NCBI GenBank assembly: GCA_035515795.1 | Contig: DATJAY010000039.1 | Span: 142,964 to 206,963 of the forward strand | Source of the DNA: Candidatus Acidiferrales bacterium | GTDB lineage: Bacteria > Bacteroidota > Ignavibacteria > Kryptoniales > JAKASW01 | DNA: 64,000 bases | Direction: 5' to 3' | Shown here: positions 17,267 through 22,321 of the stretch, piece by piece | Numbering within the stretch: position 1 is the first letter of the stretch | How the letters are laid out: the number at the start of each line of letters is the position of its first letter | Notes under the pieces: generated by a model | What the model saw: only the letters and a program-made list of their open reading frames with translations | Told to the model about the DNA's origin: nothing | The model's database searches: none | Position numbers and translations under genes: made by a program

Positions 17267-17328
17267 GCTGAGGATTGTGCAGGCGGATATTCGCTTGCGA
17301 TAAACGCTGAATTATCTTATCATAGACT

Positions 17329-17904
17329 ATGTCATGGAAGGAAAAAGCCGCGCCCCAGAGGTGGGTCGAGAATTTCTCCGATTCTTTGTTTAGGTATGCA
17401 ATCGTCAGGGTGAACGACAGGGAGACTGCTAGAGACCTAGTCCAGGATACGTTACTTTCAGGTCTTCAAAACGTCTCCTCGTTCAGAGGCGACAGTGCCG
17501 AGAAAACCTGGCTCTTCACCATATTGAAGAATAAAATCATCGACCATTATCGTAGGTCATCAACGGATAAAATCGTTTCGTTTGAGGATCTGGATGAATC
17601 GTTCAATCTCGGTGACTACTTCGACAAGGAAGGCGAATGGAACGAGTCGGCAAGACCGATAAGCTGGACCGGAAGCGGTCACGACGACTATGGATCGAAG
17701 GAATTTCATGAGATACTGCAGCGTTGTCTGGTGAGGCTCACCGTACAGTGTCGCGCTGTGTTTTCGATGAAGTATCTGGAGGAGCTTGAGTCCGATGAGA
17801 TTTGTAAGAGATTATCTGTTTCTGCGTCTAACTATTGGGTGATCATGCACAGAGCGAAACTTATGCTGAGACGCTGTATCGAAAAGAACTGGATCGAGTC
17901 CTGA
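17329..17904 (+). CDS. ECF-type RNA polymerase sigma-70 family factor
   Basis: 191 aa. Region 2 ARDLVQDTLLS..WLFTILKNKIIDHYRR and region 4 EICKRLSVSASNYWVIMHRAKLMLRR, with a roughly 45-aa linker insertion. Confidence 0.88.
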   Translation: MSWKEKAAPQRWVENFSDSLFRYAIVRVNDRETARDLVQDTLLSGLQNVSSFRGDSAEKTWLFTILKNKIIDHYRRSSTDKIVSFEDLDESFNLGDYFDKEGEWNESARPISWTGSGHDDYGSKEFHEILQRCLVRLTVQCRAVFSMKYLEELESDEICKRLSVSASNYWVIMHRAKLMLRRCIEKNWIES

Positions 17905-17912
17905 AGGCAACT

Positions 17913-18167
17913 ATGGAAATCATTCCCTGCACACAGGCGACATATTTGATTTCCAAGCGTGAGGAGCGTGCACTGACTCTAAGCGAGAGGATCCAATTGT
18001 TTGTTCACCTGATTATATGCGAGTTTTGCCGACGGTTCCTTGAGCAAACCAAAATTATTTCGAAGGAAGCAAGGAGACTCGTATCTGAGGAGAGCTTAAC
18101 GGAAGAAGAAAAACGGAAGATTCAAGAAGAGCTTGACGCCATAGGGTTAAATCGTCGAAACGAGTAG
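17913..18167 (+). CDS. Small soluble zinc-binding anti-sigma factor (ZAS, RsrA-like ligand spacing)
   Basis: 84 aa from ATG 17913. Ligands C6..H32-x3-C36-x2-C39 (HLIICEFC). No TM segment, highly charged C-terminus. Lies 8 nt after the sigma stop. Confidence 0.6.
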   Translation: MEIIPCTQATYLISKREERALTLSERIQLFVHLIICEFCRRFLEQTKIISKEARRLVSEESLTEEEKRKIQEELDAIGLNRRNE

Positions 18168-18179
18168 ACGATGTGCTTT

Positions 18180-19379
18180 TTATTTGTTTGCTTCCGTCAT
18201 CTTGTTGTTTTCTTCATCAAGGGAGTATTCCTTGCTGGAGGATGTCCCATTATCACTGTAGGTCAGTATAATTGAAGGATTATGAGGCACGTCGCCGGCG
18301 TCACAGCGCATGGCCGCCCACCCAGTATCTTTTTTCTTCAGCATCTCTTTCGGGTAATACTCGATCGATGTGATCTGCGGCGAGCTTATTCCGACATTTT
18401 TGATCTCATCACCCTCGTTTACAAAATAAATAGAAAGGTCCTTTTGATTTCTGTGCGCGCGGAGTAATCTCAGTTTTGGAACGACGGGAACATTTAGTGC
18501 CGGACCTGCAGAAGAATTCTCGCGGGTTGGGATCGTACCTTTATTTTCGTATGATTTGACCGACTCAGGATTGTCGACCCGATCGGGTTGAGATTGTGGA
18601 TCTAACGGAATTCCTTTTTCGTATGCCTTCACAAGATAATCCAGCTGAGTGTCGTCCTTGTCTGAAATCCGATTCTCTCTGTAGTCGTTCCGCTTGTCAA
18701 ACTCATATTTCACAGGTGAATTCAATTTTCTCTTCCGTCTGTTCCATAAATCCACTATTGAAGAATCATAGCTGGCTACTTTTTGGAACCGCAACAACAG
18801 GAAACCGAGTCCCACACCTGCGAAGAATCCGCCGAGATGTGCCCAATGTGCTATGTGGTCGCCGCCCGCCGCAACTCCGATGAAGTCAAAGACAAGCCAC
18901 ATCAGGATTGTCCAAAAACTTCGCGGCGACAATCTGATGGGTGCTAGCCAAACAAAGAGCAGAATTTTCAGTGGAACTCCCGGAAAAAGTACCAGCGACA
19001 TTCCTACGATGCCATTAATCGCCCCGCTCGCACCCACGGCGCTTCCGTCGCTGAGAGCAAGGTGTGCCATGGATGCGGCAATGCCGAGTCCGACATAGAT
19101 CACCGGATACCATTTGTTGCCCACGACGGAATTAACTGCATTCCCAAACACCCAGAGGACCAGCATGTTTCCGATCAGGTGAAGCCAGCTGGCATGCAGA
19201 AGGAGATTTCCGATCAGTCCCATCGGGTTCATATCCCGCAGCACCATCTCGTTGAATACGGAATAGGGAAGAGCGCCCGTAATTTCAAAAATGAAGAATG
19301 TGATGGTAATCCCGATGATGATGGCGTTTGCTACCGGCGCGAAGACGTACTTGAAATCCAATCTGGTGGGAATAATCAT
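18180..19379 (-). CDS. Rhomboid family intramembrane serine protease with a ~200-aa C-terminal extension
   Basis: 399 aa. Motifs HASWLHLIGNMLVLWVFG, GASGAINGIVG (catalytic GxSG) and HWAHLGGFFAG (catalytic His). Residues ~200-399 match no family I recognise. Confidence 0.85.
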   Translation of the reverse strand: MIIPTRLDFKYVFAPVANAIIIGITITFFIFEITGALPYSVFNEMVLRDMNPMGLIGNLLLHASWLHLIGNMLVLWVFGNAVNSVVGNKWYPVIYVGLGIAASMAHLALSDGSAVGASGAINGIVGMSLVLFPGVPLKILLFVWLAPIRLSPRSFWTILMWLVFDFIGVAAGGDHIAHWAHLGGFFAGVGLGFLLLRFQKVASYDSSIVDLWNRRKRKLNSPVKYEFDKRNDYRENRISDKDDTQLDYLVKAYEKGIPLDPQSQPDRVDNPESVKSYENKGTIPTRENSSAGPALNVPVVPKLRLLRAHRNQKDLSIYFVNEGDEIKNVGISSPQITSIEYYPKEMLKKKDTGWAAMRCDAGDVPHNPSIILTYSDNGTSSSKEYSLDEENNKMTEANK

Positions 19380-19655
19380 TTAGTTTTCCGCATGTCTAAT
19401 CTAAGCTGTCTTGAGATTGAGCCACCTTGTTGAAAATAATTTAAAATCGTCATATCAAAAAAACAAAGAGAATTAGTGTTGGTAGGATGCCTGCCAAAGT
19501 GAATTCTCGATATGAAAATCGCGGCCTTTTTCGGAAAAATATCTTTGGTTTTTCCGGCAACGATTTCGTGTAAGGTTTTGTTTTATTCTACGTCAAATCC
19601 TATGCAGTCAATGATTTCGTTCAATGATACAGAATTATAAAGATGAGGATACAAA

Positions 19656-21419
19656 ATGCTTGTACTACTTGGATTCGCGTTTCTTGCCGGACTCGTGACA
19701 ATTCTTGCGCCGTGTATCTGGCCGATCCTACCCATAGTCCTTTCGTCGTCTATCGCAGGTGAGGGGCATCGGAAGCCTCTTGGCATCACGCTCGGCATTA
19801 TGCTTAGCTTTGCTTTCTTCACACTTGCTATTTCCTATTTGGTGAAAGCGTTTCATTTCGACCCGGACTTCCTGCGATTTGTCGCGATCATAATTATCGG
19901 AATTTTAGGATTGTCGATGGTAATCCCGGCGCTGTCAAGGTTTGTGGAAGGTCTCATCAGCAGGATCAGCGGATTGCTCGGACAAGGGTCGAGGCAGGGG
20001 AGCGGATTTGTGGCGGGCTTCATCGCCGGGATGTCACTTGGGGTTGTTTGGTCGCCGTGCGCAGGGCCAATTCTAGCAGCAATTGCAGCGCTCGCGGCCA
20101 CGGGAAAGGTAACCATCAGCGTTGTACTTGTCACTCTCGCTTATGTCGCTGGCGTGGGGATCCCTCTGTTCATTTTTGCCTATGGTGGACGACAAGTGGT
20201 TACGCGGACGCGTTTTCTTTCTCGCTACACGGGCAGGATACAACAGCTGTTCGGTATAGTGATGATTCTCACTGCGGTTGGAATTTATACGAATTACGAC
20301 AGGCTGATCGAAACAAAACTCTTGAATGAATTCCCACAAATTGGCGCAGCCCTAAACCAATTCGAGAGCAGCAAAACGGTTTCTGATCAGCTCGACCTCC
20401 TGAAAGGGAACAAATCGGCAAACGACGATCCTGCTTCGGCGGCACCAGTCCGCTCAACCGAGAACGCATCTTATTTCAACGCAAACACTCCGGCCCCGGA
20501 TTTTGTCGGCATTACAGGATGGCTGAACACAGATTCGCCATTATCGATAAAGGACCTGAAGGGCAAAGTAGTCCTCGTCGATTTCTGGACATACACCTGT
20601 ATCAACTGCATCCGCACCCTTCCGCACGTGATATCATGGTACGATAAATATAAAGACAGAGGGTTCGTCGTTGTCGGAGTACATACGCCCGAGTTCCAGT
20701 TCGAGCACAATACGAACAACGTCCAGGATGCGATAAAGATGTACAATATTCATTATCCCGTCGCACAGGATAACGATTACTCAACCTGGAACAACTATAA
20801 CAACGAATATTGGCCCGCCGAGTACCTTGTCGATGCCTCTGGAAATATCAGGAGGACACATTTCGGTGAAGGTCAGTACGATGAAATGGAGATGGCGATA
20901 AGAACGCTCTTGAAGGAGAACGGTCAACCCATTTCAGAAACTACGGACGATCTGCCAGACCAAACCCCGACGGGCGTCCAGTCACCGGAAACCTATTTGG
21001 GCGCTGGACGAATGGAGTATTACTATGATGGTGGGAATACCGGTACCGTAGATAAGAAGTTTACGCTGGCAGATAATCTACGCCGAGATTCTTTCAGCTT
21101 CGGAGGGAACTGGAACGTCGAGAAAGAATTTGCGGTCGCAGGAAAGGATGCGGTGCTCGATTATGATTTCTTCGCCGACAAGGTATTTCTTGTCCTTCGT
21201 CCAGGAAACGCAGGTTCCATGGCGAGAGTTAAGGTGTTATTGGACGGTAGACCGGTCGACGATTCGAATGCCGGCGCAGATACTAATGATGGAGAAGTAA
21301 CGGTAGACGCCGACAGACTCTACAACTTGATAAACCTTAGAGGAAAGGCGGGCCATCATGTCCTCCATCTCCGGTTCGAGACGCCGGGAATCGAAGCATT
21401 CGCATTTACATTTGGGTGA
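19656..21419 (+). CDS. CcdA/DsbD-like thiol:disulfide electron transporter fused to an exported thioredoxin-like domain (DipZ-type)
   Basis: 587 aa. Membrane Cys motifs LAPCIWPILP and WSPCAGPIL, periplasmic redoxin motif DFWTYTCINCIRTLPH, and a C-terminal ~200-aa DipZ-like domain. Confidence 0.88.
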   Translation: MLVLLGFAFLAGLVTILAPCIWPILPIVLSSSIAGEGHRKPLGITLGIMLSFAFFTLAISYLVKAFHFDPDFLRFVAIIIIGILGLSMVIPALSRFVEGLISRISGLLGQGSRQGSGFVAGFIAGMSLGVVWSPCAGPILAAIAALAATGKVTISVVLVTLAYVAGVGIPLFIFAYGGRQVVTRTRFLSRYTGRIQQLFGIVMILTAVGIYTNYDRLIETKLLNEFPQIGAALNQFESSKTVSDQLDLLKGNKSANDDPASAAPVRSTENASYFNANTPAPDFVGITGWLNTDSPLSIKDLKGKVVLVDFWTYTCINCIRTLPHVISWYDKYKDRGFVVVGVHTPEFQFEHNTNNVQDAIKMYNIHYPVAQDNDYSTWNNYNNEYWPAEYLVDASGNIRRTHFGEGQYDEMEMAIRTLLKENGQPISETTDDLPDQTPTGVQSPETYLGAGRMEYYYDGGNTGTVDKKFTLADNLRRDSFSFGGNWNVEKEFAVAGKDAVLDYDFFADKVFLVLRPGNAGSMARVKVLLDGRPVDDSNAGADTNDGEVTVDADRLYNLINLRGKAGHHVLHLRFETPGIEAFAFTFG

Positions 21420-21436
21420 AAATGAGGAGAGAAAAT

Positions 21437-21970
21437 ATGAAAAAGAAGTTGCCGTTTGCATCACTGGTTGTGGTTCTTGGAGTACTTGGAATAATGCTGT
21501 ACCGTCATCCACACACCTCTGAGTCAGGTCCGGTTTCGGGTAACGGAAGAATCCTTTCGGGATCCTTCGACAGCACGAAGTTCAAGACAGATTCGCAATG
21601 GAAGAAGATCCTTACTCCTGTGCAGTACTACATTTTGAGAGAAGCCGGCACGGAGGCTCCCTTCACGGGAGCTCTGGATCACGAGTTTGGCAAAGGAATC
21701 TATCTCAGTGGTGCGACGCGCGAACCCGTGTTCAACTCAAATCAGAAGTTTAATTCCGGCACGGGATGGCCGAGCTTCTGGGCACCTATCAAACCGGACG
21801 CTGTTGTTCTTCGGTGGGATTACAGCCTTCCCGGAGAACCGCGAATTGAAGTGTTAGACAAGAGTGGAAGTCATCTCGGTCACGTGTTCGATGATGGTCC
21901 ACCACCGACAGGAAAGCGTTACTGCATAAACTCGGCCGCATTGATATTCGTGCCGGATACTACGAAATGA
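21437..21970 (+). CDS. msrB: Exported peptide-methionine (R)-S-oxide reductase MsrB (zinc-less, single-Cys form)
   Basis: Motifs REAGTEAPFTG, GTGWPSF, HLGHVFDDGPPPTGKRYCINS. N-terminal signal/anchor MKKKLPFASLVVVLGVLGIML. ATG 21437 with a GGAGAG RBS (track start GTG 21416). Confidence 0.9.
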   Translation: MKKKLPFASLVVVLGVLGIMLYRHPHTSESGPVSGNGRILSGSFDSTKFKTDSQWKKILTPVQYYILREAGTEAPFTGALDHEFGKGIYLSGATREPVFNSNQKFNSGTGWPSFWAPIKPDAVVLRWDYSLPGEPRIEVLDKSGSHLGHVFDDGPPPTGKRYCINSAALIFVPDTTK

Positions 21971-22005
21971 ATTTTACCGAATAAAAACAAAAGAGGAGAT
22001 ACAAA

Positions 22006-22272
22006 ATGAAAAAGATAGGCGCGTTCATTCTGGCAGTGTTGGTCATGATGACCGGGACAACGCTCGCGCAGGAGATGAAGCAAATGAAACCTGCAATGAC
22101 AAAATCGGATACTTCGATGATGAACAAGAGCATGAAGAAATCATCGATGAAGAGAATGAAGATGAAGAAGTCTTCAAAGAACATGAAGATGAAATCTTCG
22201 AAAAAGGATTCGACCATGATGAACAAGAAGATGATGATGAAGGGGAAGAATCCAAAGCCTTCAATGGATTAA
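22006..22272 (+). CDS. Secreted methionine/lysine-rich peptide (MXKDX-repeat-like)
   Basis: 88 aa. Signal peptide MKKIGAFILAVLVMMTGTTLA. The predicted 67-aa mature part has 17 Met and 20 Lys (hand count) and no Cys or aromatics. AGGAGA RBS; lies 35 nt after msrB. Confidence 0.7.
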   Translation: MKKIGAFILAVLVMMTGTTLAQEMKQMKPAMTKSDTSMMNKSMKKSSMKRMKMKKSSKNMKMKSSKKDSTMMNKKMMMKGKNPKPSMD

Positions 22273-22297: not shown

Positions 22298-22321
22298 TCC
22301 CTCTCCTTCACGGGAGAGGGA
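22298..22321 (+). terminator. 9-bp GC-rich hairpin after the Met-rich peptide gene (possible terminator, no U-tract)
   Basis: TCCCTCTCC-ttcacg-GGAGAGGGA, 26 nt after the stop codon. Followed by ATGGGGGCG rather than a T-run. Confidence 0.3.

Follow-up and report, generated by a model that had tools for sequence, protein, structure and literature searches.

We describe a three-gene operon, predicted from sequence in an uncultured wetland member of the Bacteroidota, that on balance we favour as a stress-induced, ECF-controlled defence of the cell envelope against methionine oxidation. The genes lie on the forward strand of a 64,000-nucleotide stretch (the window) from a genome of 4.08 Mb, in the order dipZ-like, msrB and Met-rich peptide gene, and the coordinates and compositions given for all three in a preliminary description of this DNA hold in every case. 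The best reading of the module is that of a convergent, thiol-driven analogue of MrpX-MsrPQ. To our knowledge, the only methionine-sponge systems described by experiment come from Proteobacteria and consist of an MXKDX peptide and the molybdenum enzyme MsrP. On our reading the sponge logic recurs in another phylum with components of separate origin: the peptide family is new, the reductase is an MsrB of the 1-Cys type fed by a DipZ fusion, and the anti-sigma candidate is of the ZAS type.

In the mechanism that we propose, thiol-oxidising stress in the cytoplasm would inactivate a zinc/thiol-type (HxxxCxxC) anti-sigma factor, and the freed sigma factor would transcribe the operon. The peptide would leave the cytoplasm through Sec and lose its signal sequence behind TLA, yielding a disordered, strongly cationic chain (+17) with 17 thioethers that, by analogy with MrpX, may react with HOCl, chloramines or peroxides ahead of essential envelope proteins. 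The anchored 1-Cys MsrB would repair Met-R-sulfoxide in the peptide as well as in further envelope proteins. The DipZ-like protein would then reduce the MsrB sulfenate with its C315xxC318 thioredoxin domain, and that domain would be recharged from cytoplasmic thioredoxin via C20 and C135 of the CcdA domain. The domains and cysteines are observed, while the electron path is modelled on the precedents of DsbD/CcdA and Etrx-MsrAB2. That DipZ and MsrB form a relay for repair of Met-R-sulfoxide in the envelope is very probable; whether the peptide acts as an oxidant sink, which is argued by analogy, we judge to be evenly balanced.

A predicted DipZ-type electron importer and an anchored 1-Cys MsrB

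The first gene (19656..21419, forward strand) encodes a 587-residue protein in which Pfam recognises DsbD_TM at residues 2-210 (PF02683, 3e-13), an AhpC/TlpA-like thioredoxin domain at residues 276-406 (PF00578/PF13905/PF08534) and a C-terminal Thioredoxin_10 domain at residues 443-587 (PF17991, 4.5e-32), in agreement with its first description as a CcdA/DsbD-type transporter fused to an exported CxxC thioredoxin. There are exactly four cysteines: C20 and C135 in the membrane domain, whose CcdA part has six transmembrane segments, and C315 and C318, which form the CxxC of the thioredoxin domain (C315-I-N-C318). The best solved relative is Mycobacterium tuberculosis DipZ (Rv2874; 2HYX/5CYY, E 3.6e-70 over residues 268-543), which shares the three-part CcdA / TlpA-like CxxC / Thioredoxin_10 architecture; the PDB comparison also returned the CcdA structure 5VKV. 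The protein therefore has the features that define DipZ, namely DsbD_TM with two membrane cysteines, a TlpA-like CxxC thioredoxin and PF17991.

For the msrB gene (21437..21970, forward strand) there are two candidate starts, a GTG at 21416 that overlaps the dipZ stop and the ATG at 21437, the latter being more likely given a GAGGAG Shine-Dalgarno sequence and its match to ortholog starts. The product scores 2.5e-38 against SelR and 149 bits against TIGR00357, above the cut-off of 113. The chain opens with MKKK and then a hydrophobic stretch of 17 residues; as this lacks an AxA site we read it as a signal anchor, and the catalytic domain is predicted to face the envelope. Profile scores, starts and hydrophobic stretch all fit the original proposal of an MsrB with an N-terminal signal or anchor, overlapping or nearly overlapping dipZ. 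The sole cysteine, C163, lies within GKRYCINS. Zinc CxxC pairs and a resolving cysteine are absent, the resolving position reading SGTGWPSF in all orthologs, and the enzyme is predicted to be a 1-Cys, zinc-less form that still falls inside the MsrB family rather than a canonical 2-Cys one. The proposed electron relay is minimal, with five cysteines, and suited to in vitro reconstitution.

The genome carries a single copy of MsrA, which has no signal peptide (MNNKEVATLGGGCFWC) and is cytoplasmic, leaving no exported MsrA in the genome; a search of the full genome (100% complete) found no PF00174, and hence no MsrP. A second MsrB locus is present (C12). As MsrP is missing and MsrA is cytoplasmic, the window MsrB is the sole envelope Msr among the enzymes whose N-termini were read. 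MsrB acts on the R epimer only and HOCl yields both epimers, which rules out a closed catalytic cycle in this system. In the absence of an exported MsrA or MsrP, recycling would be confined to the R epimer, and a sink would be at best half-rechargeable and in part consumable. The stereochemical caveat attached to the module from the outset, that MsrB handles just this epimer, hence stands, and it raises the question of how useful a sink recyclable for one sulfoxide epimer can be.

Operon linkage of dipZ and msrB across the genus suggests that MsrB is a physiological client of DipZ. A full-text literature search turned up one text that names both DipZ and Msr, and no functional link between the two in any other. 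Exported thiol Msr enzymes fed via CcdA/DsbD and an exported thioredoxin are known from CcdA1/2-Etrx1/2-MsrAB2 of Streptococcus pneumoniae and from Neisseria PilB (Trx-MsrA-MsrB), which works with DsbD and is controlled by an ECF sigma factor (PMC13488963), and Haemophilus and Fusobacterium have Trx/CcdA-MsrAB systems (reviewed in PMC13488963). The same flow of electrons is predicted here, and Neisseria msrAB shares the ECF control that we propose; however, in our operon CcdA and thioredoxin form one polypeptide, MsrB comes without MsrA, and a gene is dedicated to a Met-rich peptide.

The methionine-rich peptide and its family

The peptide ORF (22006..22272, forward strand) begins 35 nt past the MsrB stop, behind a Shine-Dalgarno sequence GAGGAG at 21993-21998. 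It encodes an 88-residue precursor whose signal sequence, MKKIGAFILAVLVMMTGTTLA, is followed by QE at the site TLA-QE. Our recount of the 67-residue mature part agrees with the first count of 17 Met (25%) and 20 Lys; with 1 Arg (31% Lys/Arg) and 4 Asp/Glu the net charge is +17, and cysteine, histidine and aromatic residues are absent. Leaving out the initiator, the ORF has a Met content of 21.8%, the highest among 12,806 genomic ORFs that start with ATG and code for 50 aa or more (mean 2.0% Met, sd 1.7%); the runner-up has 12.2%, and the content exceeds chance. We are confident that the gene is real and its product secreted. A GC-rich 10-bp hairpin follows the stop codon (22298..22321, forward strand; -28.2 kcal/mol and z -2.25 for a 78-nt region); it has no U tract and is probably the operon end or a transcript-stabilising element. 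No transcripts were found at the locus: the five wetland runs that contain it are listed as "DNA?" (probably DNA), and no RNA run was found.

The mature peptide has a repeat of about nine residues (SMKMKKSSK) and many MKM and MxM motifs. Cu(I) binding by Met-only motifs is known from CusF, Ctr1 and CopC-type proteins, and CusF is repaired by MsrP under copper stress. By this precedent the peptide could be a periplasmic Cu(I)/Ag(I) buffer whose thioether ligands are kept reduced by MsrB. We regard such a role as quite unlikely: the conserved neighbourhood (LemA, M48 peptidase, sigma, anti-sigma, DipZ, MsrB, peptide) has no copper or silver genes (CopA, Cus, multicopper oxidase), a chain that carries +15 to +26 net charge and offers no His, Cys or Asp ligands is poorly suited to binding cations, and the candidate regulator is a thiol/zinc-type anti-sigma factor, not a metal sensor.

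An HMM search of 1.84 billion representative proteins recovered about 10 clusters of the family. Carriers are 9 of the 26 genomes of one genus, forming a single clade on the DipZ tree, and an HMM search of 175 further genera from the class found none. At least 10 congeners retain DipZ-MsrB and lack the peptide, which is therefore dispensable. The HMM searches were more informative than a pattern-based locus search with the peptide profile, in which 3 of 274 genome matches and 1 of 498 metagenome matches were confirmed, a low yield that probably reflects poor handling of low-complexity sequence by tblastn.

So narrow a spread, together with the long open frames that the repeat region leaves on the opposite strand too, would suit a young, lineage-specific, low-complexity ORF with no selected function, carried as a 3' passenger of the dipZ-msrB transcript. 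Conservation makes this very improbable. The ORF is intact in 17/17 loci, and orthologs whose DipZ is only 72-80% identical keep the frame, the start codon, the signal peptide, the DTSMM and KSSKKDSTMM boxes and the composition. Indels are in frame, altering the number of repeats between orthologs, and composition persists across DipZ divergence of up to ~0.5 substitutions/site; a Shine-Dalgarno sequence was read both in the window and in genome G021.

Linkage points the same way as our preferred reading of a dedicated operon, with one qualification. Across the 17 loci with readable context the peptide gene lies directly 3' of DipZ-MsrB or DipZ in 16: 13 have the order (DipZ-)MsrB-peptide and three DipZ-peptide, and the single unlinked family member (P0006) has 15% Met. 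Adjacency, on which the initial proposal depended, is thus conserved, but not adjacency to MsrB at each locus; in three (G021, L076 and L077) no MsrB lies between the two genes, and the tightest link of the peptide is to dipZ and its promoter. In G021 the MsrB at the operon position is truly lost, leaving a short remnant ORF, and a 74%-identical exported MsrB sits on a separate small contig, for which a binning issue is possible. An apparent MsrB loss in G013 was rejected as an effect of ORF filtering, tblastn having found the gene intact.

Across the family the peptides have 19-26% Met, 26-31% Lys/Arg, a net charge of +15 to +26 and no Cys. The genus also encodes paralogs outside Msr contexts that are basic and secreted, with 5-15% Met against a genome mean of 2%, and that adjoin a two-component system. 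Met richness is therefore partly a family trait, and the idea that Met enrichment is exclusive to the Msr-linked copy is weakened. These paralogs share the signal peptide and the K/S/T-rich design, are encoded behind a response regulator and a histidine kinase, and have no Msr link. They bring to mind Escherichia coli Asr, which is likewise small, Sec-exported, Lys-rich, repetitive, disordered and periplasmic. Asr is under two-component control, resembling the setting of the Met-poorer paralogs. The peptide might accordingly be an Asr-like disordered polycation that coats or chaperones the envelope, its Met merely making it a frequent MsrB client and its protection owing nothing to scavenging; weak matches to the Asr repetitive basic protein by one family member and by a synthetic MxKDx control fit this, as does the finding that Spy, a periplasmic chaperone, requires repair by MsrP (PMC12503329). 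We nevertheless consider it unlikely. The family has no significant HMM match to Asr (E 0.44, one family member), which is neither Met-rich nor Msr-linked; Met reaches 19-26% in the Msr-linked copies and 5-15% in the remaining ones; hydrophobic or aromatic residues from which client-binding surfaces might form are missing from the Msr-linked copies; and the two groups of peptides are only weakly homologous (E 6.5e-5 to 6.5e-4).

An evolutionary scenario that would combine these observations is offered tentatively and is itself doubtful. An Asr-like basic secreted family in one genus may have produced a Met-enriched copy (from 5-15% to 19-26%) that was captured behind an ECF-controlled DipZ-MsrB pair, giving an independently evolved, thiol-powered, R-only Met shield in which the polycation would hold sacrificial thioethers on anionic membrane/LPS surfaces beside the anchored MsrB. 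Were this true, modules that join a Met sink to a reductase would represent a convergent design principle rather than one proteobacterial family.

An ECF sigma factor and a candidate promoter

Upstream of the operon, on the same strand, lies a gene for an ECF sigma factor (17329..17904; Sigma70_r2 and Sigma70_r4_2 matches), which we propose as its dedicated regulator and which is found directly 5' of DipZ in 10 genus loci and in L081. It is followed by a gene (17913..18167, forward strand) for a small soluble anti-sigma candidate of 84 aa, with no hydrophobic segment and no Pfam match. This protein carries a C-x25-H-x3-C-x2-C motif, that is, the H-x3-C-x2-C and upstream Cys of ZAS-type (RsrA-like) factors, and its C6, H32, C36 and C39 show no change across 10 orthologs.

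A candidate ECF-type promoter (19569..19597, forward strand) lies 58 nt before the dipZ ATG, with TGTAAGGTTT as the -35 and ACGTCAAA as the -10 element, and predicts a transcription start at about 19602-19606. The motif, with the consensus TGTAAGGTTT-N11/12-ACG(A/T)CAA, is kept in all 10 sigma-linked loci and L081, is missing from the sigma-less loci, and has a single strict match in the 4.08 Mb of the genome. We regard control of the operon by the ECF pair as likely, the assignment of this sigma factor to this promoter being correlative only, and a one-promoter ECF regulon would make a compact candidate for an oxidant-sensing switch. Two looser matches (C23:104439 and C35:185280) have no convincing promoter position and were excluded from the regulon. 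The motif was not found at the sigma gene as a sign of autoregulation; that gene has a conserved sigma-70-like promoter, TTGCGA-N17-TATCAT. The preliminary description had left the sigma/anti-sigma pair unconnected to the module, and the unique conserved promoter links them.

Comparison with MrpX and BcrX systems

MrpX of Azospira suillum PS has a signal peptide, 20% Met and 44% charged residues, is oxidised by HOCl and then re-reduced in vivo, and is under SigF/NrsF (ECF) control (PMC4436054). Brucella melitensis BcrX is an MXKDX protein described as an MrpX homologue, and the BcrS/AbcS-bcrXQP operon contributes to HOCl resistance (PMC8315932), which contradicts the earlier statement that the MXKDX family is uncharacterised. 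In composition our peptide is MrpX-like, an exported small protein with ~20% Met and many charged residues. A comparison with the MXKDX profile had been suggested, and it speaks against kinship: the window peptide gave no match to TIGR02953 at E<=1, and 0/10 family members matched at E<=10, while a synthetic MxKDx repeat used as positive control scored 5.4e-35 (119 bits). Membership of the MXKDX/MrpX family is ruled out. The first proposal, an MrpX/MsrP-like logic with MsrB in place of MsrP, survives in the conserved unit and the parallel ECF-linked architecture, and is to be corrected as regards kinship with MXKDX peptides and the three loci in which no MsrB precedes the peptide gene.

The differences from MrpX-MsrPQ and BcrX-BcrQP extend to most components. 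The peptide is non-homologous, with a ~9-residue repeat instead of the MxKDx pentapeptide and almost no acidic residues. MsrP and MsrQ are not its partners; in place of the molybdenum MsrP and quinol-linked MsrQ, the operon supplies an R-specific 1-Cys thiol MsrB and a CcdA-thioredoxin fusion. The anti-sigma candidate is a small soluble HxxxCxxC protein whereas NrsF is a membrane protein, and the host belongs to an uncultured Bacteroidota lineage rather than to the Proteobacteria. What is shared is a small Sec-exported peptide with ~20-25% Met and many charges, a peptide gene placed with envelope Msr genes (here in a predicted operon), and an adjacent ECF sigma/anti-sigma pair, for which a very small regulon is predicted in our case. 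The -35 elements are also alike, TGTAAC at the BcrS targets and TGTAAG here.

The predicted electron importer and the exported MsrB

The preliminary description proposed three consecutive ORFs forming an envelope methionine-repair module, and all three were recovered with the same boundaries. The first (19656-21419, +) encodes a 587-aa DipZ-type fusion that matches DsbD_TM, a TlpA/AhpC-like thioredoxin and a Thioredoxin_10 C-terminal domain, and its nearest solved structures are Mycobacterium tuberculosis DipZ (2HYX/5CYY, E 3.6e-70) and CcdA (5VKV). It contains exactly four cysteines, with C20 and C135 within APC/SPC membrane motifs and C315-I-N-C318 within the thioredoxin domain, in agreement with the proposed fusion of a CcdA/DsbD-type transporter to a CxxC thioredoxin.

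For the thioredoxin domain (residues 278-429), plant SOQ1 and human NHLRC2 rank next among solved structures (E 1e-26 to 1e-28). SOQ1 was reportedly put forward in a 2024 preprint as a methionine sulfoxide reductase of the lumen, which makes an intriguing parallel with the linkage of the DipZ-type protein to an Msr. At a metagenomic locus (L081:1713-3454) the annotation divides the fusion into two overlapping genes encoding CcdA (257 aa) and Trx-Thioredoxin_10 (323 aa) proteins, which could be a genuine gene split or the product of a frameshift or an assembly error. Separately, a CcdA-less paralog of ∼400 aa, corresponding to the thioredoxin and Thioredoxin_10 part, is encoded in genus genome G000 (G000:C4:227342-228331) and at homologous places throughout the class, where it is widespread (28-43% identity).

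The second gene (21437-21970, +) encodes an MsrB that scores above the TIGR00357 cut-off and carries the expected N-terminal anchor, an uncleaved signal anchor. Its start is most likely the ATG at 21437, where a GAGGAG Shine-Dalgarno sequence is present and ortholog starts concur. The catalytic C163, in the motif RYCINS, is the only cysteine, making this a zinc-less 1-Cys form. Because a genome-wide check found no MsrP and the single MsrA is cytoplasmic, the operon MsrB appears to be the sole envelope methionine sulfoxide reductase. In relative G021 only a remnant ORF of ∼28 codons separates dipZ from the peptide gene where msrB would be expected (L059:9189-9300), and another contig, of 3.4 kb (L071), encodes an exported MsrB (74% identical).

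A secreted methionine-rich peptide and its relatives

The third gene (22006-22272, +) starts 35 nt past the msrB stop and is followed by a 10-bp GC hairpin (22298-22321). Its 88-aa precursor has a classical Sec signal peptide, with the site between TLA and QE. Of its 67 mature residues, 17 are Met, 20 Lys, one Arg and four acidic (net charge +17), and none is Cys, His or aromatic; the Met and Lys counts agree with those described earlier. With 21.8% Met, the ORF ranks first of the 12,806 ATG-ORFs in the whole 4.08-Mb genome that are 50 aa or longer (runner-up 12.2%, mean 2.0%). Membership of the MXKDX family, which had been put forward for checking, was ruled out: none of 10 peptide family members matched TIGR02953, while a synthetic MxKDx control scored 5.4e-35.

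Across 10 aligned orthologs the signal peptide and two boxes, DTSMM and KSSKKDSTMM, are conserved, whereas SMKMKKSSK-like units vary in number. Mature length ranges from 58 to 108 residues, yet composition is kept within narrow limits (19-26% Met, 26-31% Lys/Arg, 21-37% Ser/Thr; net charge +15 to +26). Since the start, signal peptide and boxes are all conserved, it is highly improbable that the ORF is young and functionless. A role as a Cu(I)/Ag(I) buffer is conceivable given the MxM motifs, but it lacks genomic support and is disfavoured by the peptide charge, and we consider it distinctly unlikely.

The source genome is a wetland-metagenome assembly, and its relatives on record are uncultured Bacteroidetes MAGs. 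While the complete DipZ fusion with msrB downstream is found genus-wide (68-80% identity), the peptide profile matched 9 of the 26 genomes of the genus and none of 401 sampled genomes from 175 other genera of the class; the family comprises ∼10 clusters among 1.84 billion representative proteins. The proposed adjacency to MsrB holds at 13 loci with the arrangement (DipZ-)MsrB-peptide. It is not strict: at three loci (G021, L076, L077) the peptide follows DipZ without MsrB between, and one family member (P0006) is unlinked and has lower Met (15%). The genomes with the peptide are monophyletic in a DipZ phylogeny, which fits a single gain, and the co-occurrence counts are therefore not phylogenetically independent.

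Further secreted peptides of the genus, basic and rich in K/S/T, are encoded 3' of a two-component system, and Met makes up 5-15% of their mature parts. In G000, outside the window, an OmpR-type response regulator and a 499-aa histidine kinase precede a 79-aa secreted peptide (G000:C35:54766-57306; peptide at L083:1501-1740) that is K/S/T-rich, with 5% Met and 33% Lys in its mature part. It has matches in five more genus genomes (G016, G001, G021, G024, G018), and the four with a readable ORF reach 10-15% Met. Met richness is thus partly a family trait, and two of these peptides match the Met-rich peptide profile, weakly. The 79-aa peptide is possibly an Asr-like stress peptide of the periplasm, related or ancestral to the Met-rich one. 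The Msr-linked peptide may in turn be a Met-enriched derivative of such a protein, a reading we consider unlikely.

Promoter and sigma factor linkage

Relative to the preliminary description, the linkage to a promoter and sigma factor is new. An ECF sigma gene (17329-17904, +) and a small ORF (17913-18167, +; 75-84 aa among relatives) have counterparts directly upstream in every peptide-bearing genome. The small ORF contains invariant C6, H32, C36 and C39 (C-x25-H-x3-C-x2-C) and no membrane segment, making it a ZAS-type anti-sigma candidate. In the window, the anti-sigma gene is separated from the operon promoter by a gene for a rhomboid protease that carries a long C-terminal extension (18180-19379, -); this gene was found at that position in none of the relatives examined and thus looks like a recent insertion or rearrangement.

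Aligned regions upstream of dipZ share a single strongly conserved block, TGTAAGGTTT-N11/12-ACG(A/T)CAA, which marks a candidate ECF-type promoter at 19569-19597, 58 nt 5' of the dipZ ATG. Its geometry is of the ECF type, with a 16-nt gap from AAG to CGTC. Across 17 genus loci (16 from relatives plus the window), the motif was present at all 10 sigma-linked loci and at none of the seven without the sigma pair; it also occurs at L081. The strict motif has one copy in the whole source genome, and these patterns suggest an ECF regulon of one operon, controlled by a thiol/zinc switch in the cytoplasm.

Upstream of the sigma gene lies a different promoter, conserved and sigma-70-like (17295-17328; TTGCGA-N17-TATCAT). 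It ends 5 nt from the ATG, suggesting a transcript with little or no leader. The ECF-type motif is absent there, so the gene lacks obvious autoregulation. Among sigma-less loci, four of those scanned and two others carry a divergent Cys-rich MerR-like regulator. Such MerR-family genes, divergent to dipZ-msrB (L063:6181-6651, L065:3533-4006, L066:3647-4117, L068:3754-4224), belong to sister-clade genomes with neither the ECF pair nor the peptide. These regulators have a Cys-rich C-terminal domain (CWSHIQCPEEQRKKCPAF...CWTY...C..LDCR.CKVY) and may serve the DipZ-MsrB relay as an alternative sensor of redox state or metals.

A proposed repair cycle and known systems

The domain and cysteine inventory supports a predicted relay from cytoplasmic reductant through CcdA C20/C135 and C315xxC318 to the MsrB C163 sulfenate. 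The precedents of MrpX (PMC4436054) and BcrX (PMC8315932) suggest by analogy that the exported Met-rich chain would be oxidised instead of essential proteins and re-reduced afterwards. As MsrB acts on the R epimer only, the peptide would be recyclable at most partly; spent peptide would then have to be made anew, as an inducible sigma factor would allow. We speculate that the peptide, being strongly positively charged, binds anionic surfaces of the membrane or LPS close to the anchored MsrB. Our confidence in the overall mechanism is moderate: the original methionine-sink reading is partly supported and gains strength from the promoter and sigma linkage, while its account of family membership, strict MsrB adjacency and paralogs needed correcting.

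In the full-text literature, where co-mentions were covered in part, we found no report of a Met-rich peptide paired with MsrB/CcdA or of a functional DipZ-Msr link. The proteobacterial MrpX/BcrX-MsrPQ-ECF systems follow the same logic, in which an exported peptide rich in Met accompanies an envelope Msr and an adjacent ECF pair, and the operon appears to be a variant built with MsrB and a DipZ-type fusion. Unlike the MrpX-type systems, the source genome has no MsrP and its anti-sigma candidate is not NrsF-like. The electron-supply side resembles that of the CcdA-Etrx-MsrAB2 and PilB type (reviewed in PMC13488963), but here the supply is fused, as in DipZ, and the Msr is MsrB alone.
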